Part shown: one piece after another, positions 32,836 to 46,072 of the stretch
How positions within the stretch are numbered: position 1 is the first letter of the stretch
Layout of the letters: the number at the start of each line of letters is the position of its first letter
Assembly (NCBI RefSeq): GCF_056746865.1
Contig: NZ_CM163382.1
Length of the DNA: 64,000 nucleotides
Direction: 5' to 3' (one strand)
Notes under the pieces: generated by a model
Told to the model about the DNA's origin: nothing
Database searches by the model: none
What the model saw: the letters and a program-made list of their open reading frames with translations, nothing else
Translations under genes and position numbers: made by a program

Positions 32836-33010
32836 ACGACGGAGACTGTTCAAATGTCTCTGTACTGACGCCCCAATATGGCTTTACCACCGTCTCCGAT
32901 TGTTGAACACGTCAATGTCATCGAAGATATCTGCACGATCCAGATCCTGGGTTTTGTAGGCCCGTTTTCTGATGCACTGCTTTTTCAGCGAACTGAAGCA
33001 AGGCCATAGA
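32836..33010 (-). pseudogene. IS3-family transposase (OrfB) C-terminal remnant
   Basis: The minus strand translates to FSSLKKQCIRKRAYKTQDLDRADIFDDIDVFNNRRRW*SHIGGVSTETFEQ. This resembles the conserved IS3-family C-terminus (..SLK.E.I......R....IF.YIE.FYNR.RRHS.LGG.SPEQFE) but carries an internal stop. Confidence 0.6.
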
Positions 33011-33082
33011 AGTAAAACAGTACCGCTGGCAACTGGGCATTTTCTCGCTTTAGCGGAGACCAACAGTATGCTTAGATTCAGT

Positions 33083-33622
33083 TTATGCCGTCAGCCGATA
33101 GTGCGACTGCACCAGACCCGAAGGGAAGCTGCGGCTGGATAATAGCGTCAAATCGATATCATGGGGTAATACTCCGAATAGCGGTTTTCCCGAACCGAGC
33201 AGAACAGGAACAGTTGTGATAACGATATCGGCAACCAGACCTTCGCGCAGGAACGACTGTATTAACTGCCCGCCATCGATATAAACCCGGTGCACGTTCT
33301 TCTCCATAAGGTCAGCAAGAGCCTCCCTTGGCGTGCGGCATGAAAACTGTACTTTACCCTTCAGCGCCTTGGGCACGGGGGTATCGGTTAGCTGCCGGGA
33401 AAGCACCAGCACGGGCCGATCATAAGGCCATTCGTCAAAAGTCAGCACCTTCTCATAGGTGCCTCGTCCCATAATGATCCAATCTTTGTCCGCGATGAAT
33501 GCGGCATAGCCATGATCTTCTGTCGGGTCATCGCGCTTTAACAGCCAGTCGATATCGCCATCCTGTCGGGCGATATAACCATCAAGACTGACCGCGATGA
33601 AAACATGTGTGGTGACCATCAA
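33083..33622 (-). CDS. RibD_C / dihydrofolate-reductase-like family protein
   Basis: 179 aa with HVFIAVSLDGYIARQDGDIDWL, IIMGRGTYE and VYIDGGQLIQSFLREGLVADIVITTVPVLLGSGKPLF. Confidence 0.8.
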   Translation of the reverse strand: MMVTTHVFIAVSLDGYIARQDGDIDWLLKRDDPTEDHGYAAFIADKDWIIMGRGTYEKVLTFDEWPYDRPVLVLSRQLTDTPVPKALKGKVQFSCRTPREALADLMEKNVHRVYIDGGQLIQSFLREGLVADIVITTVPVLLGSGKPLFGVLPHDIDLTLLSSRSFPSGLVQSHYRLTA

Positions 33623-33678
33623 GTGCTCCGTTTTCAGGTTGCATATATCTCGTTGAGTTTAGCAATGTTCGCTCCAGG

Positions 33679-33736
33679 CACGAAGCGAGCAAGTTACCTA
33701 AGTTGAAGGTCCGCAGGGAGCGAGGAGCAGAAGTTC
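33679..33736. repeat. left copy of a 58-bp imperfect direct repeat flanking the 33844-34866 gene
   Basis: CACGAAGCGAGCAAGTTACCTAAGTTGAAGGTCCGCAGGGAGCGAGGAGCAGAAGTTC matches 35066-35123 at 44 of 58 positions in an ungapped alignment done by hand. Confidence 0.65.
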
Positions 33737-33843
33737 GAAGCACATCATGAAGTAAGTTTTAAAATGGGAGATAACTTGCTTTTACATATTTTCCAATGCA
33801 ATATCATACCCTTTTAAAAATAAATCAGATATATGAGGTGAAA

Positions 33844-34866
33844 ATGTCTAGTCTTAATTTATTCGATGATGTCGTACCTTTAGAAAAACAGCATCCAATA
33901 TATATAATGATGAAAAAGGAACGCTATGAACCGGAGAGAGAAGTAATTAACCAATGGGCAAAAGGATTTCTAGACAGGGATAATAAGTTTACAAAAGAAT
34001 TTCAAACAAGTTTTGAACCTTGCCTATGGGAGTTATATCTTTTTGCTTATCTTAAAGAATTGGGTTTAAGGAACGACTTTTCATACGATGCACCTGACTT
34101 CATCGTCAATGAACCTGGGTTTTGCATTGAGGCAACCATAGCCCTTCCGGCACAAGGAGCCCCTGGAGCGCATGGTTTCAGTACGGAAGATATGCCAAGA
34201 GATTTTAATAAGTTTAATTCTGAGGCATCTATTCGACTTAGCAATAGTTTTATATCAAAGGTAAAAAAATTAAGATCGAGATATTCTCAACTTCCTCAAT
34301 GTAAAGAAAAACCTTTTGTTATCGCCATAGCTTCCTTCGACCGACCTTTTGCGCACTTTGCCGCAGCCAGACCCATACTTGCAACATTATATGGTTTATA
34401 TCATGATGAAGAAGCAACCATTGAATCAGGATCAAAGAGCATAATTTCTTATAACGTTGAGGCTGCGGTAAAAAAAGAAAATGTTAATATAGCCATGGGG
34501 TTATTTTGCACGCCTGATTATTCGGATGTAAGTGCTGTGATTTATAGTAGTTTAGCTACTTGGGGAAAAGTAAGAGCTTTGGCGGACAATCCTTCAGCTC
34601 TAACAATTTATACAACCTTTACCCCAAGAGAAAATTCATTATATCCTAAAGTTCATCAAGCCAAAAAAAATGATTATATAGAGCATCTGGCAGATGGATT
34701 GTATATTTTACATAACCCATTTGCCAAGTATCCGTTGCCTAAAGAGACGCTAAGCCACCCTAGAGTAGCACAAGGTTATGTTGAATCTGATGGATACGTC
34801 AATTTTGTAGCGCCAGAGGATTTTCTTTTATTGCGTTTTTTACAATCATTCAATCTTAAAGATTAG
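33844..34866 (+). CDS. uncharacterised protein, paralog B of the 10733-11905 product
   Basis: ATG 33844 is preceded by GAGGTG. 340 aa with FQTSFEPCLWELYLFAYL, APDFIV..FCIEAT, KPFVIAIASFD, IAMGLFC..DVSAVIYS and DGLYILHNPFA. Confidence 0.75.
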   Translation: MSSLNLFDDVVPLEKQHPIYIMMKKERYEPEREVINQWAKGFLDRDNKFTKEFQTSFEPCLWELYLFAYLKELGLRNDFSYDAPDFIVNEPGFCIEATIALPAQGAPGAHGFSTEDMPRDFNKFNSEASIRLSNSFISKVKKLRSRYSQLPQCKEKPFVIAIASFDRPFAHFAAARPILATLYGLYHDEEATIESGSKSIISYNVEAAVKKENVNIAMGLFCTPDYSDVSAVIYSSLATWGKVRALADNPSALTIYTTFTPRENSLYPKVHQAKKNDYIEHLADGLYILHNPFAKYPLPKETLSHPRVAQGYVESDGYVNFVAPEDFLLLRFLQSFNLKD

Positions 34867-35065
34867 TAAATATGGTCATATTTATTTACTTTACATAGAT
34901 AAAGTCTAAAGATGGCACTTCCTTTAAACTCAACTACCTATGATTTAGAGTGGTTGTCCGGCCTGCTTCCGTAACCGTTAGTTCGACTGACGAGATTCCT
35001 GTTTCCCTCTAAAAGACTTGGTTGATTAAAACAGGTCACCGAATAGCCATTTAGTCCACTTTGAC

Positions 35066-35123
35066 CACGAAGCGACCGAACTAACTGAGCAGAAGGTCCG
35101 TTATGAGCGAGGAACGGAAGTTC
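35066..35123. repeat. right copy of the 58-bp imperfect direct repeat
   Basis: CACGAAGCGACCGAACTAACTGAGCAGAAGGTCCGTTATGAGCGAGGAACGGAAGTTC, same orientation as the left copy. Confidence 0.65.
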
Positions 35124-35196
35124 ACAGTTGATCTCACACCCAAATAGTCGCATTACTAACATTGCTGCGTGTTAATCAACAGGCAGCAGGTCACTC

Positions 35197-36294
35197 TTAT
35201 TTTCTTGATAGGCTTTGTATAGTATGAATAAACCTTACAAAGTTATGAAGAAGCTCGTGATTTTCCTCTGATATACCATCTGGGTCAAAGTGCATCACGT
35301 CGTTACGAATTATTCTGACCTTGTCGAGCTCTTTAGTAAATATTTTCTTATCTATTTGAAGTTCGGTTTTTTTCCACAATTCTGGATTTTCAAAAAGTCG
35401 TATATATTCCCCAAAGGTTAAATCTGCGACCGACTCTATAACCCGTTCGCTGTCAAATGGATTAACGATGCTAACAAGCTCATCTTTCGTAAATTTTCCA
35501 TCTATCAGCTTACGAATATGATTTTCGATTTCAGATAGTAAAAGAAAAGGTTCTGACAACTGTCTGAACTGAGAACTAAGATCGGTAGTAGTTATAATCC
35601 CACTAATTCTTTGATCAGAAGATCGCACTAATACGTAAGCATACTCAATAATTCTAGGTAGTGCAGAAAAAATAGAGTCACTGGCGTTTATTTCCCTGTG
35701 TGGCTTCATATAATCACGCACAACCGCAGATTCTGATTGGGTCAACGCTAGTATTGGAGCAATGCTTTCCCAACTAATAACACCTTTAACATCTCGCTCG
35801 CTGGTCATAACGGGTAGTTGAGAGTAGTCATGCCGCAACATCAATGTGATGGCTTCTGTTAATGTAGCGTCAGGTTTCACGGTCACTAGTTTAACATCCG
35901 ATGCTTCGAGTCGACTAACACGGAAGGCTGGCTCGGAAACTGCACCGGAAATTAGTTCATCATGCGGCTGAAATACTGTTTCAGGTGTAGCCAATTCGGC
36001 GTTACTTGATTCGGTTTCTTCATGTAAACATTCACCTGCTTCATGGGGCGTTGCGTCATTCCCCGGAGGTGCATAGATAGTAATTTTTGCATCCAGCGGC
36101 ACACTATCAAAATCAGGTTCGGTTTTAACTCCTAAGCTTTCTAATGCTTTGCGAATTTTGTACGCAACCATGTAGCCTCGACGCTCTGCGCCAAACCAGC
36201 TTATGAATTCTCGCACTGATACTGGGTTTGAGGACATACCGTCTTTTAGTTCACGAAGGATTTCGTTAAGTCTTTCTCGATTTTCTACTGCCAT
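35197..36294 (-). CDS. CBS-pair protein with a C-terminal HEPN-like domain (Rx4H motif)
   Basis: 365 aa. Two CBS-like segments (VKLVTVKPDATLTEAITLMLRHDYSQLPVM..VKGVISWESI and VRDYMKPHREINASDSIFSALPRIIEYAYVLVRSSDQRISGIITTTDL). The C-terminal helical region contains IIRNDVMHF (RNDVMH encoded at 35290-35307). Confidence 0.7.
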   Translation of the reverse strand: MAVENRERLNEILRELKDGMSSNPVSVREFISWFGAERRGYMVAYKIRKALESLGVKTEPDFDSVPLDAKITIYAPPGNDATPHEAGECLHEETESSNAELATPETVFQPHDELISGAVSEPAFRVSRLEASDVKLVTVKPDATLTEAITLMLRHDYSQLPVMTSERDVKGVISWESIAPILALTQSESAVVRDYMKPHREINASDSIFSALPRIIEYAYVLVRSSDQRISGIITTTDLSSQFRQLSEPFLLLSEIENHIRKLIDGKFTKDELVSIVNPFDSERVIESVADLTFGEYIRLFENPELWKKTELQIDKKIFTKELDKVRIIRNDVMHFDPDGISEENHELLHNFVRFIHTIQSLSRK

Positions 36295-36940
36295 AAAATT
36301 TTCTCCATGTAGGTTGTCGGCTACTGTTAGGTTTCAATCTTGATTCAGGCTTCTCACGCTTTTTTTAAAATCTGGACAACGAGGCTGCACTGACTTTTTC
36401 AGCTCACCTCAGATTGCACCATCCCATACACATAGCTCAGATTCCTAATGTTCAGTATAAGGAGGCCAGAATACGAATTGCCCTTACCGCTAGTGCCAGC
36501 GCGTTGAGTTTAGTAGATGCCTTATTCATTTAGAATTTGATAAAAATACAAGACTCGGACAACAAGCTGCAATATTAATCGTTATTTTTCCACTCGAGGC
36601 CCACCGTCCGTTTCTGGCACAGGGCTGCTGTTGCAGCCCTGAAAACCTTAGACTTCAATCGATTCAAAGATCTCTAATGCATCATCTACTTCAATACCCA
36701 GATAACGGACTGTGCTTTCCAGTTTCTTATGGCCCAACAGAAGTTGGATCACCCGAAGATTCTTAGTTTTCTTGTAGATAAAGTAGGGTTTTGTTCTTCT
36801 CATGGAACGTGTGCTGTAAAGCGAATCTTCGAGACCAAGCTTTCCTGCCCACCCATGAAAGATTCGGTTGTATTGTAGGGTTGATATGAACCGCCCCGGA
36901 AATCCTGGAGACTAAACTCCCTGAGAAAGAGGTAAACAGG

Positions 36941-37267
36941 ATGACTAAAAATACTCGTTTTTCCCCCGAAGTCCGTCAGCGGGCGATTCGTATGGTTCTG
37001 GAAAGTCAGGATGAATATGACTCACAGTGGGCGGCAATTTGTTCCATTGCCCCAAAGATTGGCTGTACGCCGGAGACTCTGCGTGTCTGGGTTCGCCAGC
37101 ATGAGCGGGATACCGGGGGCGGTGATGGTGGGCTCACCAGCGCTGAACGTCAGCGTCTGAAAGAGCTGGAACGTGAAAATCGTGAACTGCGCCGCAGTAA
37201 CGATATCCTTCGCCAGGCTTCCGCTTATTTTGCGAAGGCGGAGTTCGACCGCCTCTGGAAAAAATGA
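36941..37267 (+). CDS. IS629 OrfA (HTH transposase subunit)
   Basis: 108-aa ORF inside the IS. It overlaps orfB at AAAAAATGATG, the frameshift region. Confidence 0.9.
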
Positions 37268-38154
37268 TGCCACTGCTGGATAAGCTGCGTGAGCAGTACG
37301 GGGTCGGACCGGTATGCAGCGAACTGCATATTGCCCCGTCAACGTATTACCATTGTCAGCAACAGCGACATCATCCGGATAAACGCAGTGCCCGTGCGCA
37401 GCACGACGACTGGCTGAAGAGAGAGATACAGCGCGTATACGATGAAAATCATCAGGTGTACGGTGTGCGTAAAGTCTGGCGTCAGTTGTTACGGGAAGGA
37501 ATCAGGGTGGCCAGATGTACAGTGGCACGTCTCATGGCGGTTATGGGACTTGCCGGTGTTCTCCGGGGTAAAAAGGTCCGTACGACCATCAGCCGGAAAG
37601 CCGTTGCCGCAGGCGACCGCGTAAACCGTCAGTTCGTGGCAGAACGACCTGACCAGCTGTGGGTGGCTGATTTTACTTACGTCAGCACATGGCAGGGCTT
37701 CGTCTATGTGGCGTTTATCATTGATGTGTTTGCCGGATACATCGTGGGGTGGCGGGTCTCATCGTCTATGGAAACGACATTCGTGCTGGATGCGCTGGAG
37801 CAGGCGTTGTGGGCCCGTCGTCCGTCTGGCACCATCCATCACAGCGATAAAGGCTCTCAGTATGTGTCACTGGCCTATACGGAGCGACTAAAAGAAGCCG
37901 GATTACTGGCATCAACAGGGAGTACAGGCGACTCGTATGACAACGCGATGGCTGAGAGCATCAATGGTCTTTACAAAGCGGAGGTAATACACCGTAAGAG
38001 CTGGAAAAACCGTGCAGAAGTGGAACTGGCCACACTAACGTGGGTGGACTGGTATAACAATCGACGATTGCTGGGAAGGCTGGGCCATACTCCTCCGGCA
38101 GAAGCAGAAAAAGCTTATTATGCTTCCATCGGAAACGATGATCTGGCAGCCTGA
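37264..38154 (+). CDS. IS629 OrfB (DDE integrase-fold transposase)
   Basis: 296-aa ORF with [17 protein letters not shown] and the [11 protein letters not shown] region. Confidence 0.9.
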
Positions 38155-38923
38155 GTTCACAGATAAAACACTCTCCAGGAAACCCGGGGCGGTTCAATAT
38201 GTGCTGATTAGTTCCGATACGAGACCGGAACAAGAAGTCTTTATTGTGCAAATAATCAAGCTTTATCAATGCAGCAATAGCTTCTCTTGTTCCTTTGGTT
38301 ATCTCAAATTGCACAGGGCTACCGGTTTTCTGTTGCAACACCGTTGCTCTGCTTGAAACCAAGCGACCATATGCCACATCAGATACTTTGAGTTTGACCA
38401 GATCACAGCCTCGAAGCTTACTGTCCAGGGCCATATTGAACAGAGCTAAATCGCGCGTTTTGCCTTCCAGTTCAAGCCGGATTCGGGTCCCCCAGATATG
38501 AGATATCTGAAGTGGTCTTTTTTGGCCGATGATACGGTCTTTGTTCCACGGTGACGTGTTCATACTCAAATCTCCTGCAATGTGGGAGATTTGAGTATGG
38601 TTGTCCCTTATGAGCGCAGGCTGTGTGAAAACACTCACCAAATACTAAAATGTATGAGGTTATGCAAAATCTGGAATCAATCAGCTGATTATCAGAGTCG
38701 AATTTTACGTAGGGAAGATATTTTCAGCTCTGTTTTAGGCCATTTCTGCACTCAAAAACGTTTTCACACAGCCGCGGTCAGATCGCAATCTTGCACCACA
38801 ATCTGGTACGAGTCAGGCAAGCATTTGGGGTGAAAGCCTGTCCTGAGTGAGAATCTAACCAAGCATTGTGTTATGTTTAACAACTGGAGTAGACTACAAA
38901 ATCAATTAATTAAGGATCTTGAG

Positions 38924-39799
38924 ATGACTATAGCCGCAGCTTGGGTAAGAACTTTAAGAAATTGCAAAGAATTGATTGTAGTATCAGATAGTAGATTAAA
39001 TGGTGGTATGAAAATGGATTGTGGGCAGAAGATAATAACTCTGCCTCGTTCAGATGCTTTCATATGTTTCGCAGGTGATACTAGTTGGGCATATCCTTTG
39101 ATGCATCAAGTGGCATCAGCAATTGATATATATGATCGTTGCTCCTCACGAGCCCAAGATATTAAAGAACTCAAAACCCATATTCTTAAAATTTTTGAAC
39201 GACTGAGAGAGCAAATTCACGATGCCATAGGTGACATGGATATACCCGATGCAAAATTCATATTCGGGGGATATTCATGGATAAGAAAAAAATTCATGAT
39301 TTGGCACATCACCTACCAAAAGAGTACCAACTCTTTTCGTGCGGATCCTGCACGTGAAATATATGGATCACCTGTTGTATTTACTGGTGATGAAGAACAT
39401 GTAATTGTAGCTAATGCTATGCTTCGTGAAAAATTAAAATCAAGAGGGAAGCTGGATAATTTAGAAAAAGGCATGAAAAATACTGTTAAATTTGAATGAG
39501 AACCATTTGAAGTTATTCGAGACATGTTTTACAAAGTTAATGAAAGTTCTTATGAATTTAAAAACTCATCAATTGGAGGCGCGCCCCAAATCCTAAAAAT
39601 CTATGAACATTTATCAAGTCAAAAACTTGGTGTTCTGTGGAAGAACAGGATGGATAGTGAACCGAACATATATTTATCTGGCCGGAGGCTTACTAATTAT
39701 GGTCCGCGAGATATGTGGATACTAGACCCTGAAAAACTGATAACGTACAATCCATTGAAAAGTAATCCTGATAAGGAGGTAATTAATCAATTCATTTAA
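38924..39799 (+). pseudogene. HslV/proteasome-beta-like Ntn-hydrolase family protein with an in-frame TGA (39497-39499)
   Basis: MTIAAAWVRTLRNCKELIVVSDSRLNGGMKMDCGQKIITLPRSDAFICFAGDTSWAYPLMHQV parallels the HslV/proteasome pattern (N-terminal Thr after Met, then ..vvia.D.r.t.g......Ki..l.....i.faG...da). ORFs 38873-39499 and 39524-39799 are in the same frame and separated only by TGA. Confidence 0.55.
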
Positions 39800-40131
39800 T
39801 CCTTCGGGCATTTAATTATACTTTATTAAAGATACAATTATTATATTTGCATTTTTAATTTTTATGACAGTTGTAAACAAAACTGTTAAGCATTGTGAAG
39901 AGAACGGGGCAATGAAAAAAAGCCGAGCTGTATTTCGTAGCCCCATCCCCTGACCAATATTTTGAAATCAGGATATTTCGATAGCTAAAACTCGTACAGG
40001 TACGTCTTTGGTGTTTTGTACTGAGCGACTAAGAGCAAATTCGGCAACAGAAATTTTTTGAATATCCTCGAAGCTTGTCAGTGTTATTATTACCCCTTGC
40101 TCAAAAACCAGTTATTTCTCGTGTCCTGTAT

Positions 40132-40470
40132 CTATATCTTCACTGTTAAAGAAAAAACTTTTGAATGTGGTTCACTAACCCGAAGTACAAATAGTTCAAT
40201 TGCATTATTACGATATGCCCTATCATGCCACTGTGGAACTCCCATCGCGATATTGGGACATAATGTTGTTGACAATGGCCGAGTGGTTTCAAACATAGCG
40301 CCGTATTTATATTCAGCGGGCCACTTTCCGCCATGAAATAGATATTGACCTGGCATCATCGGCCTACCACTTAAGCGAATTGCTTCTGATACTGCCTTTA
40401 GATCACAGCAATAAGTATCTCCTTGATATTCTGCAATCGGCTTAGGTGTAGTTTCTGGCATGTAAGACAA
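40132..40470 (-). CDS. hypothetical 112-aa protein
   Basis: ORF in a low-GC block. It contains YLFHGG and PLSTTL, a weak resemblance to ADP-ribosyltransferase motifs 1 and 2, but no clear third motif. The start is uncertain (TTG 40470 or ATG 40461). Confidence 0.35.
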   Translation of the reverse strand: MSYMPETTPKPIAEYQGDTYCCDLKAVSEAIRLSGRPMMPGQYLFHGGKWPAEYKYGAMFETTRPLSTTLCPNIAMGVPQWHDRAYRNNAIELFVLRVSEPHSKVFSLTVKI

Positions 40471-40941
40471 CCACGAAGGGTGTTGCTTTATAGCGTCTTC
40501 GATACCGGTATCGCCTTCGGTTGTTAGTGTGTATTAGATAAGCATGTTTTTCCGCCCGGAAATTTAAAGAGAGTGAATTATTCGACAGAAACGCTCACTT
40601 CTGGAAACGAACGACAAGCATATAACGTCCACCAAAGCCTCAACCAACACGCAAAACCCAGCCCCCAACAATCAACTTAAAAATCAATCGGATATTAAAA
40701 TCCCTTCCATATCAACTTCATCACCACTCTTTTTGCGCCTTCCCCTTCGCGCAAAAAATCAAAATCCTCAACAAACCCAATCACCTACCCCACCAATTAC
40801 AAGGACGCCAGCCAATCATGATTGGACGGTGCAAGGACAACACCAACAAAAACAGGAAGTTAGCAGTCTCAGCAAGACACCGACCAGACGGTGAGGAGAC
40901 ATAAAAGGATACGCAAAGGAGCCGCGGCTCCTGGTGATATG

Positions 40942-40966
40942 AAAGCCCACAGATGTGGGCTTTTTC
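40942..40966. terminator. hairpin with a T5 run on the plus strand, directly after the autotransporter stop on the minus strand
   Basis: AAGCCCAC-aga-GTGGGCTT followed by TTTTC at 40961-40965 (the first T is shared with the stem). On the minus strand the stem is followed by TTTCATAT. Confidence 0.55.
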
Positions 40967-40974
40967 GTTGATGG

Positions 40975-43900
40975 TCAGAACGACCAGTTCACACCAGCCA
41001 CCGCGTTCCACGGGGATTCCACACCGGCACCATGGCTATACCCCACCCCGAGATGTCCGCTTAACGTACTGCTGAATGAGGCTTTAATACCTGCCTGGTA
41101 TATTCCACGTCTGCCCGACAAATCATTGACGAAATTACCGTCATTATTCACCTTCACCCGGTTATCATCGACAAATTCTTTGCGCACAGCCGCCTTCAGC
41201 CACGGCTCAATTTCCATACCGTTCCCCAGACGCATGTTGTAACTCAGCGTTGCGCCCAGTTCACGATATATACTGCGGGTATCGACTGATTTCGATTCCA
41301 TGCCATTGGATAAATGATATTCGGGGTTATCAGCGGTGAACCCCGTTAACGATGCATACGGCGTCAGGTTCCAGTTACCATCCGTAAATCGCATCCCGGT
41401 TTCAATGTGACCGCCCAGCCCGTTGCTGCGATAACTGCCGTTGGCGGCTCCACCGCTGCTCATTTTACCGGCTACGTTACTTTCAAAGCGGTTCAGCTTC
41501 ACGATACCGTCCAGATAGAAACCACTTTCATGTTCCCAGCTGGCATAGCCCCCCAGAGAATAACTGCCCACACTGCCATGTCCTCCACGATCAAAACCAA
41601 TATGTGAATGGGAATAACCCATAAAAGCGCCCAGCGTCGCAATCCCCTCAGGAATATCATTACGGCTATCGATCCCCACCGTCATTCCGGTCAGCGTCTG
41701 CTCAAACCCGGCACCCGCATCGGTGGTGACATTATTACGGGTGTTATACGTCGTCCCCCAGACATTATTGTTGTGTGGACTCGCTTTCATTATGTTCAAC
41801 CGCTCGCGAATACTGTTTAGCTCAGCATCAAAGACCAACGGTAATGTTGCTGCCATATTGAGTACGGCTGCTGTAGAAGGCGTGATGCGATTCTCCGGGA
41901 CGGGTGTCGGCGTTGGAGCGGGAGTCGGGTCTGGTTTCGGATCCGGTTTTGGGTCTGGTTTTGGATCCGGTTTCGGATTTGGGTTGGGGTCCGGGTTGGG
42001 TTTGACATCATTGGTCAGGTTCCAGTTGCTGTTGCCGTCGCTTTTCAGGACATACTCATAGGTCCCAAGATCAACGAAACCGCCGGTATTACCCAGCGTA
42101 AACGAAGCATCCCCTCCCCCTGTTTTCACCAGCGTCATCGCGTCGTCAGACTGAGGGCTGACGCCGGTATCCTGAACAAAGATTTTAAAATTGCCAGTGG
42201 CGTTGTTGTTGACGACCAGTTGATCGCCCCGGGAGTCTGCAACGTTGGTATGCAGGTAGAAATTACCGCTGCCGGAAAGTTCACTGGTGGTCAGCGTATT
42301 GTAGATACCGTTAGTTGTGGCAGGCGCTGCTGTTTGTGCTGATAAATAAACATCACCGTCGTTGAGGAGTAAACTGTTTACTCTATATTCGCAGTTGCTG
42401 GTGCCTGCACAGGAATTATTGCTGTTAAGCCAGACACTGCCCCGACTGGCAGCCGTCAGGTCGGCAAGCGTCGTATCGACGCCATTTCCGATAGTTAATG
42501 TCGCGCTATCGGTAATCCGGACCACCCCTTCAAGTTTAACTGGCGTAACATTATCCCGTGGCGTCATTAACGACAGGCTTCCTGTCGCGCCACTGACCGA
42601 TGCATCCGCCAGCGTACCTGCGTAGACGATTGCCGTCCCGCCAGCGATCAGTAGATCTTCTGCCCGGGCCAGAGCCTGAAACTCATCTTTTGACCGACCG
42701 AGGGTATATTGCCCACCGGAATTAACCTTTGTGGCGAAGTCCTGACCCAGGTTTTGCATTGCCCCACCGTTGCCAACCGTGGAATCGCGAGCTTCGGTAC
42801 CTGCTAATACCAATAAATTACCGCCATTTTCCAGCAGCACATTGGTCGCTAAATTTCCGGCAATGGAAAAGGTGCCGTACTGGTGAGTACCGCTGATTTC
42901 AATACCGTTAGCCGTGCTCGTCTGGAGAGCGGCACCGCTGTTCTGGATGATATCTGTCGCTTTGCCATTATCGTTGACTGTCAGCGTACCGCCTTCATTA
43001 ATCGTTGTTTTTACTGCCTCACCGTTAGCCGAAACTGTTTGTATTCCGCCGTCGTTAATCGTTGTCTCATTCGCCACCCCCTCGACGATTTGTTCGCCGC
43101 CGGTGAGCGTCGTGCCTGTCGCAGTGGCTTTTGTTTTGACGATCTCCCGCCCGCCCGCATTGACCTGTGTTTTGGCGGAAGTGGTGTCTGACTCCACGGT
43201 TAACACGCCGCCATTTGCCAGCAGGATATTGTTCGCCGCATCCTGCTCAATGCTGAACGCGACGCCATCAGCGCGTGTCCCTGTGACCCGCGTCGCTCTG
43301 GTGGTTGCAACCAACGCGCCCTGGCTACTTTGCTGTATCCCCGTTGCGCTGCCTTTCTCCCGCACATCGAGAGTGCCGCCTTCATTAAGCACCGAGTTTT
43401 CAGCCAGACCGCCCTCATTAACTACCTGTGAACCGCCATTAATAATGGAACCTTCCGCTGTCCCGTTTACCATAATTTGTTGTAGGCCTGAGACGATATC
43501 GGTATTGATCGCCTTACCATAATTCTGAACGGTTTGCGTACCGCCATTGATGTGCGTTTTGTCTGTTGACCCACCATCAACAATTTGTTCACCACTTTCG
43601 ATATTTGCCTCAGTGGCTAAACCATATACCGTTTGCTTGCCACCTTTGATATTTGCTTTTTCAGAAGTGGCACTGGCATATATTGTTTGGGTACCAGCAC
43701 TATTAAGTACAGTACCAACATCTTTTCCATAAACATCCATTTTGCCGTTGGCATTAATAATCGTGTCAACTGCCCGGGAACCAGTGACGACTGTTAATGA
43801 GCCAGCGTTTTCCAGCACTACATTTTTAGCTTCTGAATTCCTGATGTAGAAAGCATCACCATAACTGTTGGTTCCTTCGATAAGTGTTCCGGAGGTCGTG

Positions 43901-45558
43901 GAAGCAATTAATGCGCCGCCGGATTGTTGCTCAACATGCTTAGCCTCACCACCGTCCTGAACCTCCAGAACGCCACCATTATTAAGTCTGGTGCTATCTG
44001 TTTTAGCCTCCTTCTGGACAATCAGCTTACCGCCAGCATCAATGGTAGTATTTTTCGCCGAGGTTTTAGCCATTACCGTCAGTTCGCCGGTATTTTCCAG
44101 CACAACATAATTAGCCTCTCCTCCGGTAATAGTGAAGTGAGAGAGCTTGTTGTATCCTTCGATATCAGTCCCTGCGCCCGTGTTGGCAACTAAAGCACTG
44201 CCCGTCTCCTGGTTAACCCCATGTGCAATACCGCCGGTATAGACAATCAGCGAGCCTCCGGCGCTAATATTGCTGCCAGTTGCCGTACCATCTTTCTCAA
44301 CAACCTGCCGGCTCCCAGAGGATATATTTGTCGTGTCAGCTTTCCCGCCGCTCTTGATATTTTGCGTTCCACTGTTGATATTGGTGCCCGTGGCAATACC
44401 ATGATTATTAATATTCTGTGTGCCACCATTAATTATGGTATTTGTCGCGTTTCCGGCAACATCCATAACGCCGCCATTATCTATTCGGGTCGCATCAGCT
44501 TTAGCATTCGTTAAAACTGACATTGTTCCTTTATCTTTAATAATCGTCTTATTTGCCGAACCATATGCGTTTATGTCTAAATGACCACCGTTTTCCAGCA
44601 ACACATTCTCTGCCACGTTATTGTGGATGGAGAATGCCCCTTCACTATTCGTACCGCTCACCGTCAAATCGTAAGTCGTTACTTTTAAAGCGGCTCCATC
44701 GTGCTGAGTAATATTAGTTGCCGTACCACCTCTAACATCAAGCACGCCGCCGGAATAAACTTCAATAACATCCGAGGAGCTCGTGTTATCAACAATTTGC
44801 GTACCACCAGAATAGATCTGCGTATTTTTTGCCGTTGACTTACTATTCAGAGACTGAGTTCCGCCTTCAATCGTCGTGTCCAGCGCACGGCTCTCATATA
44901 CTCTTTGCTCACCGCCATTTTTAATGGCGGTTGTTTCTACTGTGCTCTGTTCAACATACTGTCGCCCACCATTTATGGTTGTGTTCGTCGCCAGACTTCC
45001 TTGCGTGATGTCCTGATAACCAGACTTATTTATCGTCGTACCGTCAACATGCCCCTGAGTTGATACTGACTGGCCTCCACCATCAATGATTGTTCCATTT
45101 GCAGTCCCCCCCTCTATGCGTGAAGTACCGCCCTTAATTGTCGTGTCATTGCTGGTACCACCTTTATAAACATATTGATTGCCACTTTCGATTATCGTGC
45201 CAGTAGAAATTCCTCCGTACTCAATTGACTGTCTGCCTCCATTAATGGTTGTATTATTAGCTTGCCCGTTAATATCGGCATGGATTGATACTAGTTGCTC
45301 GCCACCAGTTTCAATAATACTACTATTAGATATCCCACCATAGACCTCCTGCCGGCCATGGTTGATAATATGTGTGTTATTTGTTGTACCTCGTTCATCT
45401 ACTCGTTGGTTGCCATCTACAGTCTCATCGTTTACCACACCAATAACATTAGTAGTGAAGGCCGCCATCCCGGGCTGGGCATATATTAAGGCAGATATCA
45501 ATAAGGAAAGTACTGAGCGGCGAAAATAATAGGGACTGGTCCTGTTCATAAATTTCAT
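40975..45558 (-). CDS. ypjA: AIDA-I/Ag43-family autotransporter adhesin (YpjA-like)
   Basis: Start chosen at MKFMNRTSPYYFRRSVLSLLISALIYAQPGMA (signal peptide); the ORF track extends to 45678. The long passenger carries degenerate about 19-aa beta-helix repeats (..TINGGxQxV..G.A..T.I..GG.), then a PDPK-rich linker, then a C-terminal beta-barrel ending AVAGVNWSF. Confidence 0.88.
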   Translation of the reverse strand: MKFMNRTSPYYFRRSVLSLLISALIYAQPGMAAFTTNVIGVVNDETVDGNQRVDERGTTNNTHIINHGRQEVYGGISNSSIIETGGEQLVSIHADINGQANNTTINGGRQSIEYGGISTGTIIESGNQYVYKGGTSNDTTIKGGTSRIEGGTANGTIIDGGGQSVSTQGHVDGTTINKSGYQDITQGSLATNTTINGGRQYVEQSTVETTAIKNGGEQRVYESRALDTTIEGGTQSLNSKSTAKNTQIYSGGTQIVDNTSSSDVIEVYSGGVLDVRGGTATNITQHDGAALKVTTYDLTVSGTNSEGAFSIHNNVAENVLLENGGHLDINAYGSANKTIIKDKGTMSVLTNAKADATRIDNGGVMDVAGNATNTIINGGTQNINNHGIATGTNINSGTQNIKSGGKADTTNISSGSRQVVEKDGTATGSNISAGGSLIVYTGGIAHGVNQETGSALVANTGAGTDIEGYNKLSHFTITGGEANYVVLENTGELTVMAKTSAKNTTIDAGGKLIVQKEAKTDSTRLNNGGVLEVQDGGEAKHVEQQSGGALIASTTSGTLIEGTNSYGDAFYIRNSEAKNVVLENAGSLTVVTGSRAVDTIINANGKMDVYGKDVGTVLNSAGTQTIYASATSEKANIKGGKQTVYGLATEANIESGEQIVDGGSTDKTHINGGTQTVQNYGKAINTDIVSGLQQIMVNGTAEGSIINGGSQVVNEGGLAENSVLNEGGTLDVREKGSATGIQQSSQGALVATTRATRVTGTRADGVAFSIEQDAANNILLANGGVLTVESDTTSAKTQVNAGGREIVKTKATATGTTLTGGEQIVEGVANETTINDGGIQTVSANGEAVKTTINEGGTLTVNDNGKATDIIQNSGAALQTSTANGIEISGTHQYGTFSIAGNLATNVLLENGGNLLVLAGTEARDSTVGNGGAMQNLGQDFATKVNSGGQYTLGRSKDEFQALARAEDLLIAGGTAIVYAGTLADASVSGATGSLSLMTPRDNVTPVKLEGVVRITDSATLTIGNGVDTTLADLTAASRGSVWLNSNNSCAGTSNCEYRVNSLLLNDGDVYLSAQTAAPATTNGIYNTLTTSELSGSGNFYLHTNVADSRGDQLVVNNNATGNFKIFVQDTGVSPQSDDAMTLVKTGGGDASFTLGNTGGFVDLGTYEYVLKSDGNSNWNLTNDVKPNPDPNPNPKPDPKPDPKPDPKPDPTPAPTPTPVPENRITPSTAAVLNMAATLPLVFDAELNSIRERLNIMKASPHNNNVWGTTYNTRNNVTTDAGAGFEQTLTGMTVGIDSRNDIPEGIATLGAFMGYSHSHIGFDRGGHGSVGSYSLGGYASWEHESGFYLDGIVKLNRFESNVAGKMSSGGAANGSYRSNGLGGHIETGMRFTDGNWNLTPYASLTGFTADNPEYHLSNGMESKSVDTRSIYRELGATLSYNMRLGNGMEIEPWLKAAVRKEFVDDNRVKVNNDGNFVNDLSGRRGIYQAGIKASFSSTLSGHLGVGYSHGAGVESPWNAVAGVNWSF
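41921..42003. repeat. short tandem repeat encoding the Pro-rich linker PNPDPNPNPKPDPKPDPKPDPKPDP of the autotransporter
   Basis: Reiterated GGATCCGGTTTTGGGTCTGGTTTT-type 12-bp units read directly. They also create a spurious plus-strand GSGFGSGFG ORF. Confidence 0.7.
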
Positions 45559-45957
45559 CCTCTGAAAAGTGAATACTGAGTAGCGTTTAAGCGACCTTAG
45601 CTTTGCTGCAACATCAGCCCACAGGCACCAGACCAGGGGATTCATCCTGAAGAGACAGCGCAAGTGTATTGTGTTCACCGCTCATCAAAGACATCATGAT
45701 GAAATGATGATATTCCGCATAAGAATGAGGCATTTTTTTAAGACATTGTGCTGAAGGATGATTGGATAAAAAAGTCAATCTTTTCAGGAAATACGGCGTA
45801 TTCTTTTCTTTCGACATTGAAGCCATCGGAAAAATAAAATGATTTACATAATCGTTTCTGATGAATATCTTCTGCTCACATAAAAATCACACAATAACAT
45901 TGAGATTGCAGATTGTTTTACTTTTACAGCTTTCGTCCCCTCATTGTTGGGCAAATA

Positions 45958-46072
45958 TTGGTAGAGTCAGAGCACGAAAGTTAATACCACGTTCGCACAG
46001 CTCCTCCAACAGCACGGCAAGATGCCGCATACTGCGCCCCAGTAGGTTCAGTTTGCAGACAACCAGTGTGTC
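45958..46072 (-). pseudogene. pinH: serine invertase/resolvase (Pin-like) fragment
   Basis: The minus strand translates DTLVVCKLNLLGRSMRHLAVLLEELCERGINFRALT. This matches Pin residues about 57-93 ([37 protein letters not shown]). No N-terminus or C-terminus is present. Confidence 0.7.

Follow-up and report, generated by a model that had tools for sequence, protein, structure and literature searches.

A Probable Nonsense Pseudogene of a Stand-Alone Proteasome-Fold Hydrolase in a Low-G+C Island of Escherichia coli

Introduction

Which gene does the Escherichia coli chromosome carry at positions 38924-39799 of the stretch analysed here, and does it still encode a working protein? The window, i.e., the whole stretch, comprises 64,000 nucleotides of contig NZ_CM163382.1 (RefSeq assembly GCF_056746865.1), and the locus in question adjoins the ypjA/EhaD autotransporter gene (40975-45678, minus strand). 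A first-pass annotation, made from the letters of the DNA, had described two neighbouring open reading frames (ORFs) as one HslV/proteasome-like gene with a C-terminal extension, split by a TGG-to-TGA change and located in an accessory cassette of low guanine plus cytosine (G+C) content, without a partner ATPase and perhaps belonging to a conflict system. The follow-up analysis indicates that 38924-39799 is very probably a nonsense pseudogene of a stand-alone, proteasome-fold N-terminal-threonine (Ntn) hydrolase, which belongs to an uncharacterised and patchily distributed bacterial family. As a pseudogene it is unremarkable; the intact family has not previously been studied.

A Single Reading Frame with a Fixed Stop Codon

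Positions 38924-39799 form one frame of 291 codons on the plus strand, which ends with TAA at 39797-39799 and contains a single interruption, an in-frame TGA at codon 192 (39497..39499, plus strand). The ORFs 38873-39499 and 39524-39799 share this frame, and restoring the stop codon yields a protein of 291 amino acids that starts MTIAAAWVRTLRNCKELIVVSDSRLNGG...GQKIITLPRSDAFICFAGDTSWAYPL and has the stop in the context NTVKFE*EPFEVIRDM (the asterisk marks the TGA). Because the homologues all begin with Met-Thr at the equivalent ATG, the start is placed at 38924 and not at the upstream ATG 38873; a Shine-Dalgarno-like AAGGA (38912..38916, plus strand) can be read directly from the sequence 7 nt 5' of ATG 38924. 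A scan for promoters and terminators at the locus revealed no signal exceeding shuffled sequence.

A search with the restored protein retrieved 388 homologues (best E 7e-189), and the full-length ones are single ORFs of 270-315 amino acids with 94-100% query coverage. The residue at the stop position is Trp in every homologue down to approximately 50% identity, within the motif F-[DE]-W-E-P-F-E, and the intact orthologue of Trabulsiella odontotermitis (L002:8001-8873) has TGG at this codon. Among 265 proteins across the family, position 192 is Met in 116, Trp in 97, Leu in 17, Tyr in 13 and Phe in 10, but a stop in none. The proposal of one gene split by a TGG-to-TGA change is thus borne out by the homologues.

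The locus is present at an identity of at least 99% in 128 of 5,426 complete E. coli genomes (2.4%), invariably as a single chromosomal copy. When a 95-nt probe with TGG in place of the TGA was searched against E. coli, 127 genomes matched, all of them in the 95-99% identity band and none identical; among the matches listed, those spanning the full probe have 98.9% identity, corresponding to one mismatch. As no matching genome is identical to the TGG probe, the nonsense allele has become fixed wherever the locus occurs in E. coli and does not reflect a base-call error. The first-pass annotation had asked for verification of the base call, and the recurrence of the TGA in all 127 matching complete genomes provides it.

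The RefSeq annotation ends with codon 191, giving hypothetical protein WP_000150283.1. Its presentation of the first ORF alone as a protein is the one point in favour of two separate genes; this option, together with that of a sequencing error, is so improbable as to be practically negligible. All homologues cover both parts within a single ORF, core elements of the domain begun in the first ORF are encoded by the second, and the TGA occurs in 127 independent complete assemblies. WP_000150283.1 is therefore only a truncated piece of the protein, and its annotation should be changed to that of a pseudogene.

Predicted Fold and Catalytic Residues

The fold was predicted with AlphaFold2 on an intact protein that is 96% identical to the restored product (P0001), using an alignment of 80 sequences. 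The model has a mean predicted local distance difference test (pLDDT) value of 91.6 and a predicted template modelling score (pTM) of 0.90, and it shows the four-layer alpha-beta-beta-alpha fold with proteasome topology (strands S1-S10, helices H1-H4). Its N-terminal part comprises S1 (3-11), S2 (14-21), S3 (37-39), S4 (45-49), H1 (53-74) and H2 (80-97), followed by S5-S8 (111-155), H3 (157-173) and an insertion of a short helix and a loop (174-192). The C-terminal part is built from H4 (193-214), S9 (222-227), S10 (232-239) and small strands (248-275).

In a Foldseek search against the PDB, the top 50 matches of the model are all 20S proteasome chains, mostly of the catalytic beta type (E 2e-9 to 8e-8, target template modelling score 0.54-0.73), which agrees with the earlier suggestion of an Ntn-hydrolase-like fold. 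Structural comparison of the model gave values of 17.7-15 for 20S proteasome beta subunits (185-195 residues aligned), 16.5 for Anbu, 13.8 for HslV, 12.9 for BPH and 9.8 for connectase, with 9-11 for other Ntn hydrolases.

Sequence searches gave far fainter signals. A Pfam scan returned only a chance match to Turandot and no match to PF00227 even at E up to 10. No match was found in NCBIfam, including its HslV and proteasome models, or in PHROGs and PADLOC, with NCBIfam and PADLOC followed to E 10, and a single-sequence search of PDB sequences returned only noise. Profile searches with the family match HslV only, with E 0.026 and 0.0044, the latter being the best match to a solved structure. 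The profile alignment is nevertheless in the catalytic register, with Asp22 on Asp17, Lys36 on Lys33, and Ala50-Gly51 on the AG of HslV; hhalign against E. coli HslV gave the same register at a probability of only 7.8%.

The proteasome-beta/HslV pattern that the first-pass annotation had recognised is essentially invariant across the family. Thr2 is conserved in 229 of 232 sequences (Ser in two), Asp22 in 239/239, Lys36 in 247/247 and Gly51 in 249/250, and further conserved residues are Gln222 (258/259) and Arg254 (253/258). On the plus strand of the window, the putative nucleophile Thr2 is encoded at 38927-38929, Asp22 at 38987-38989, Lys36 at 39029-39031 and Gly51 at 39074-39076, and the placement of Asp22, Lys36 and Gly51 relative to S2, S3 and S4 fits the model. 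The family thus combines a predicted fold of peptidase family T1, Thr at position 2 and equivalents of Asp17/Lys33/Gly47, while curated sequence models do not match it. A direct Met-Thr start is found in 210 of the family sequences that reach the N-terminus, which indicates that the family has no propeptide.

In intact members, the start Met would be removed by methionine aminopeptidase, exposing Thr as the N-terminal nucleophile, and Asp22, Lys36 and Gly51, the equivalents of Asp17, Lys33 and Gly47 of the proteasome, would complete the catalytic centre. With neither a propeptide nor an unfoldase ATPase (see below), the enzyme is proposed to act alone on accessible substrates, the peptide or amide bonds of which it would cleave or possibly transfer.

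Age and Consequences of the Nonsense Mutation

Compared to the intact T. odontotermitis copy, the E. coli gene shows 25 nucleotide changes in 24 codons, stop codon included. The ratio of nonsynonymous to synonymous substitution rates (dN/dS) relative to this orthologue is 0.17 for the part upstream of the stop and 0.16 for the part downstream. These low values on both sides of the stop suggest that most of the divergence arose with the whole gene under selection and that the inactivation is recent. One strain carries a second, independent lesion: in EECO1006 (NZ_CP090319.1 3899792-3901869), the insertion sequence (IS) IS1B interrupts the pseudogene some tens of bases 5' of the TGA.

Codons 1-191 (38924..39496, plus strand) encode Met1, strands S1-S8, helices H1-H3 and the H3/H4 insertion. 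The now untranslated codons 193-291 with the terminal TAA (39500..39799, plus strand) specify H4 (193-214) and S9-S10 (222-239), as well as the invariant EP (193-194), IGGAPQ (217-222) and Gly253-Arg254 motifs and a C-terminal tail of approximately 50 residues. The term 'C-terminal extension' used in the first-pass annotation therefore fits only this tail, whereas the part encoded after the stop is mainly core fold. In E. coli, the TGG-to-TGA change at codon 192 would deprive the protein of H4, S9-S10 and the invariant motifs, and this loss is expected to keep the 191-residue product from folding into an active enzyme.

Selenocysteine insertion or another programmed recoding of the UGA was considered and rejected, because a stop occurs in no homologue at codon 192 and a downstream recoding structure is absent. 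The RNA 3' of the stop contains no hairpin resembling a selenocysteine insertion sequence (SECIS), and its folding is no better than that of shuffled sequence (z = +0.84).

A different route to a functional allele would be low-rate reading of the UGA by near-cognate tRNA-Trp, which would restore the ancestral residue in a small quantity of wild-type enzyme, or complementation between the two fragments, each made on its own. Natural UGA readthrough in E. coli inserts Trp, and Trp is exactly the residue lost at codon 192. The persistence of the allele in 127 genomes and a dN/dS after the stop that is as low as before it are also in line with residual function. On the other hand, low dN/dS is expected if the divergence mostly predates a recent inactivation, no recoding structure follows the stop, and in none of the homologues is this codon a stop. 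An obvious Shine-Dalgarno sequence is missing ahead of the internal ATG (39524), and the E. coli allele has Phe in place of the nearly invariant Leu202. The neighbouring gene of the same module has three lesions, and one strain has IS1 in the locus itself. A still functional allele is accordingly regarded as improbable, and it is unlikely that the E. coli copy itself does anything.

Some observations weigh against the interpretation as a nonsense pseudogene of a proteasome-fold hydrolase. The dN/dS of 0.16 after the stop fits recent inactivation, but it is also compatible with residual function via UGA readthrough. The sequence similarity to known T1 peptidases is marginal, as seen in the lack of Pfam and NCBIfam matches and in the low hhalign probability. 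Catalysis, substrate and oligomeric state of the intact members can be proposed from the fold and from residue conservation alone, and the presumed failure of the 191-residue product to fold is deduced from the topology of the model.

Comparison with Known Proteasome Homologues

The 20S proteasome beta subunits (peptidase family T1) are structurally closest to the model, but the family differs from them in being encoded by a single stand-alone gene, with neither an alpha subunit nor a propeptide. It also has an insertion of approximately 20 residues between H3 and H4 and the conserved tail of approximately 50 residues, and its sequence identity to the beta subunits is 10-17%, with no match to PF00227. 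HslV (ClpQ) works with the ATPase HslU, whereas neither HslU nor another AAA+ gene is conserved beside the family in 80 loci. HslV is a core gene product of approximately 175 residues; the family member described here has 291, the family is accessory and patchy, and it does not match the NCBIfam HslV model. The insertions and the tail of the family are also missing from Anbu and BPH. The H3/H4 insertion and the conserved C-terminal tail probably alter oligomerisation or substrate access in comparison to HslV and the 20S proteasome.

The archaeal protein ligase connectase, which is proteasome-like, resembles the family in its length of approximately 290 residues, its N-terminal Thr and its ability to act alone. 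Intact members might likewise not be proteases, but use the Thr nucleophile as a transpeptidase or ligase in the manner of connectase, or as an amidase on a non-protein substrate; this alternative is considered rather unlikely.

The closest description is found in the study by Fuchs, Alva and Lupas (2021, PMC8665760), which reported 22 clusters of uncharacterised proteasome homologues. All of these clusters share the S1-S11 core and Thr1/Asp17/Lys33/Gly47, and most have neither a propeptide nor an ATPase partner. Those termed Proteasome homologs with Multiple Insertions (PMI) include PMI-2 to PMI-6, which have an H3/H4 insertion, as does the family (174-192 in the model), and the phylum range of PMI-4 is similarly broad. 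The family fits the description of these clusters. Ten NCBI accessions were compared with the representatives of that study (e.g., HDY66466.1 and WP_137109689.1), and none of them matched. In the literature, no later paper characterising proteasome homologues of this kind was found. The family thus adds to the stand-alone proteasome homologues without known function.

Family Distribution and Genomic Neighbourhood

Among 1.84 billion representative proteins, a profile search detected 871 clusters (50% identity; E up to 1e-3), and a scan of one genome per species identified 112 loci in 185,579 species. The loci are distributed over Proteobacteria, Acidobacteriota, Firmicutes, Actinobacteria, Bacteroidota, Planctomycetota, Chloroflexi, Spirochaetes and other phyla, and the hosts of the homologues include Aeromonas, Pseudomonas, Burkholderia, Vibrio, Leptospira, Bacillus and Planctomycetota, among others. 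Although it has no name, the intact family is clearly delimited: approximately 870 clusters in many phyla share an invariant Thr/Asp/Lys/Gly centre and several other invariant residues, and no model in Pfam, NCBIfam, PHROGs or PADLOC matches them. The family is a reasonable target for biochemical work. A tblastn search of a plasmid collection returned eight records, five of which are conjugative, while one is a 4.9-Mb E. coli record with the same allele. No homologue was found by tblastn among 50,697 phage records; distant phage proteins of the same fold exist, with 12-14% identity.

Longer family members contain no recognisable fused domain, except for one likely frameshift fusion to a short-chain dehydrogenase, and the N-terminal extensions of some members were dismissed as miscalled starts. 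Two members from low-G+C organisms, P0205 (536 residues) and P0222 (513 residues), have an extra C-terminal region of approximately 220 residues without a Pfam match, which might be a target-binding module. A 90%-identical enterobacterial copy, P0003 (L096:5911-6786), is called as 261 residues, with its true Met-Thr start 90 nt upstream. It retains Trp192 but has Lys at the nearly invariant Glu16 and Asp at the nearly invariant Tyr117; this copy may also be degenerating.

No partner ATPase accompanies the family, as the first-pass annotation had already noted for the E. coli locus. An HslU-type AAA+ unfoldase is absent from positions 33000-46000 of the window and is not conserved across the 80 homologue loci. 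Of the 150 nearest neighbours, only two contain AAA_15/AAA_21 domains, and these proteins match models of Gabija, OLD or Abi-type defence ATPases. The comparison of homologue neighbourhoods, proposed earlier as a check for conserved neighbours, produced none: all-against-all clustering of the ORFs within 5 kb in the 80 loci revealed no recurrent neighbour family, and when the 150 nearest neighbours were scanned with Pfam and PADLOC, no family occurred in more than two of them.

The earlier idea of a conflict system draws on genomic context only. Defence or mobile genes often lie near the family gene, as in several hosts: the E. coli locus lies close to PD-T7-5 and DS-11 homologues and an integrase (see below); AbiH and an Mrr-like nuclease are encoded nearby in Trabulsiella; and in another enterobacterium, the host of P0003, the gene is located in an integrase-bounded island with AAA_13, between a type I restriction-modification operon on one side and a protein kinase on the other. 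AIPR, PIN_12 and a Dam-like methylase are encoded nearby in Pseudomonas fragi, and GajA, MADS components and ApeA are among the nearest neighbours at other loci. In other hosts the neighbours are housekeeping genes, as in Aeromonas, where one arrangement has parC on one side and a LysR-family regulator gene on the other, and in another the gene follows the trp operon.

It is conceivable, if on balance unlikely, that intact members are single-gene anti-phage or conflict effectors and that the E. coli copy was once a defence gene, now lost, in a defence island. Besides the neighbours listed above, the very patchy distribution and the presence on a few conjugative plasmids agree with such a role. 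The housekeeping context of some copies, such as those in Aeromonas, and the lack of any PADLOC match at E up to 10 speak against it. The association of the family with conflict systems is suggestive only. The absence of homologues from the phage records bears neither way on this question. To our knowledge, no proteasome-like protein is found among the known defence systems. Apart from Fuchs et al. (2021), literature searches for the family accessions and for proteasome-like defence proteins yielded nothing relevant.

A more specific and still less probable version is that intact members constitute a new type of single-gene conflict or anti-phage effector without an ATPase or ring partner, in which the insertion and the tail (Arg254 and its neighbours) would confer a specific target, and that the E. 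coli allele was recently lost or is weakly leaky via UGA-to-Trp readthrough. Its recurrence beside defence genes makes the family an inexpensive choice for a phage-challenge screen.

The Decaying Island in E. coli

The first-pass annotation had placed the gene in a low-G+C cassette, and the G+C content is indeed 34-39% over 38600-40600, as compared to 50-60% in the flanks. Within this region, a 1.7-kb module (38774..40504) shares 95.7% identity with T. odontotermitis L002:7851-9582 and comprises the proteasome-like gene and a convergent gene for a protein of 223 residues. The latter survives in E. coli as a remnant (39968..40504, minus strand), the counterpart of which is L002:9045-9725. Three lesions mark the remnant: the 5' end is gone, one base pair is deleted near 40159, and the GAA codon at 40112-40114 has become TAA; RefSeq retains a piece of 109 residues as WP_223380521.1.

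The product of the convergent gene contains invariant FHGG, RP-STT and EKE motifs, which might form an ADP-ribosyltransferase-like H/R...STT...EKE pattern, and its predicted structure reaches a pLDDT of only 34.6. It has only five homologue clusters, four of which share only 61-66% identity with it. Three of these four, for which the contigs were checked, are encoded on P1-like phage-plasmids, flanked by a Rep3-like gene and the darA/lydB operon. The convergent gene was examined as a possible partner of the proteasome-like gene and rejected; because its homologues in the phage-plasmids have no proteasome-like gene nearby, it is regarded as unrelated cargo.

Upstream of the module, a tyrosine recombinase gene is split into fragments at 36648-36803 and approximately 38160-38641 (minus strand) by an IS3-family element (orfA 36941-37267, orfB 37264-38154). 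The same recombinase is intact in strain 2017C-4173W12, with 200 residues (L001:8262-8864). Two dead genes, a split integrase and an additional IS1 in one strain identify the region as the remnant of a decaying island.

Two anti-phage genes lie further upstream and make the stretch a small defence island. A PD-T7-5 homologue of 356 residues (33796-34866, plus strand) gives a full-length PADLOC match with E 9.8e-102, and also matches PD-T7-1 with E 5e-51; it is annotated as hypothetical in RefSeq and has no NCBIfam match. The second gene encodes a DS-11 CBS-domain protein of 365 residues (35197-36294, minus strand), which matches NCBIfam NF053863 'DS11_antiphage' with E 1.8e-121 and 405 bits against a cutoff of 260; PADLOC 2.0 contains no model for it. 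In this reading, the proteasome-like gene is cargo in a low-G+C island that is in decay and in which anti-phage genes are also present. The left edge of this low-G+C island holds a gene (33083-33622, minus strand) for a 179-residue protein of the dihydrofolate-reductase/RibD-C-terminal family; the gene adjoins an IS3 remnant, as shown by the annotation of the matching RefSeq record.
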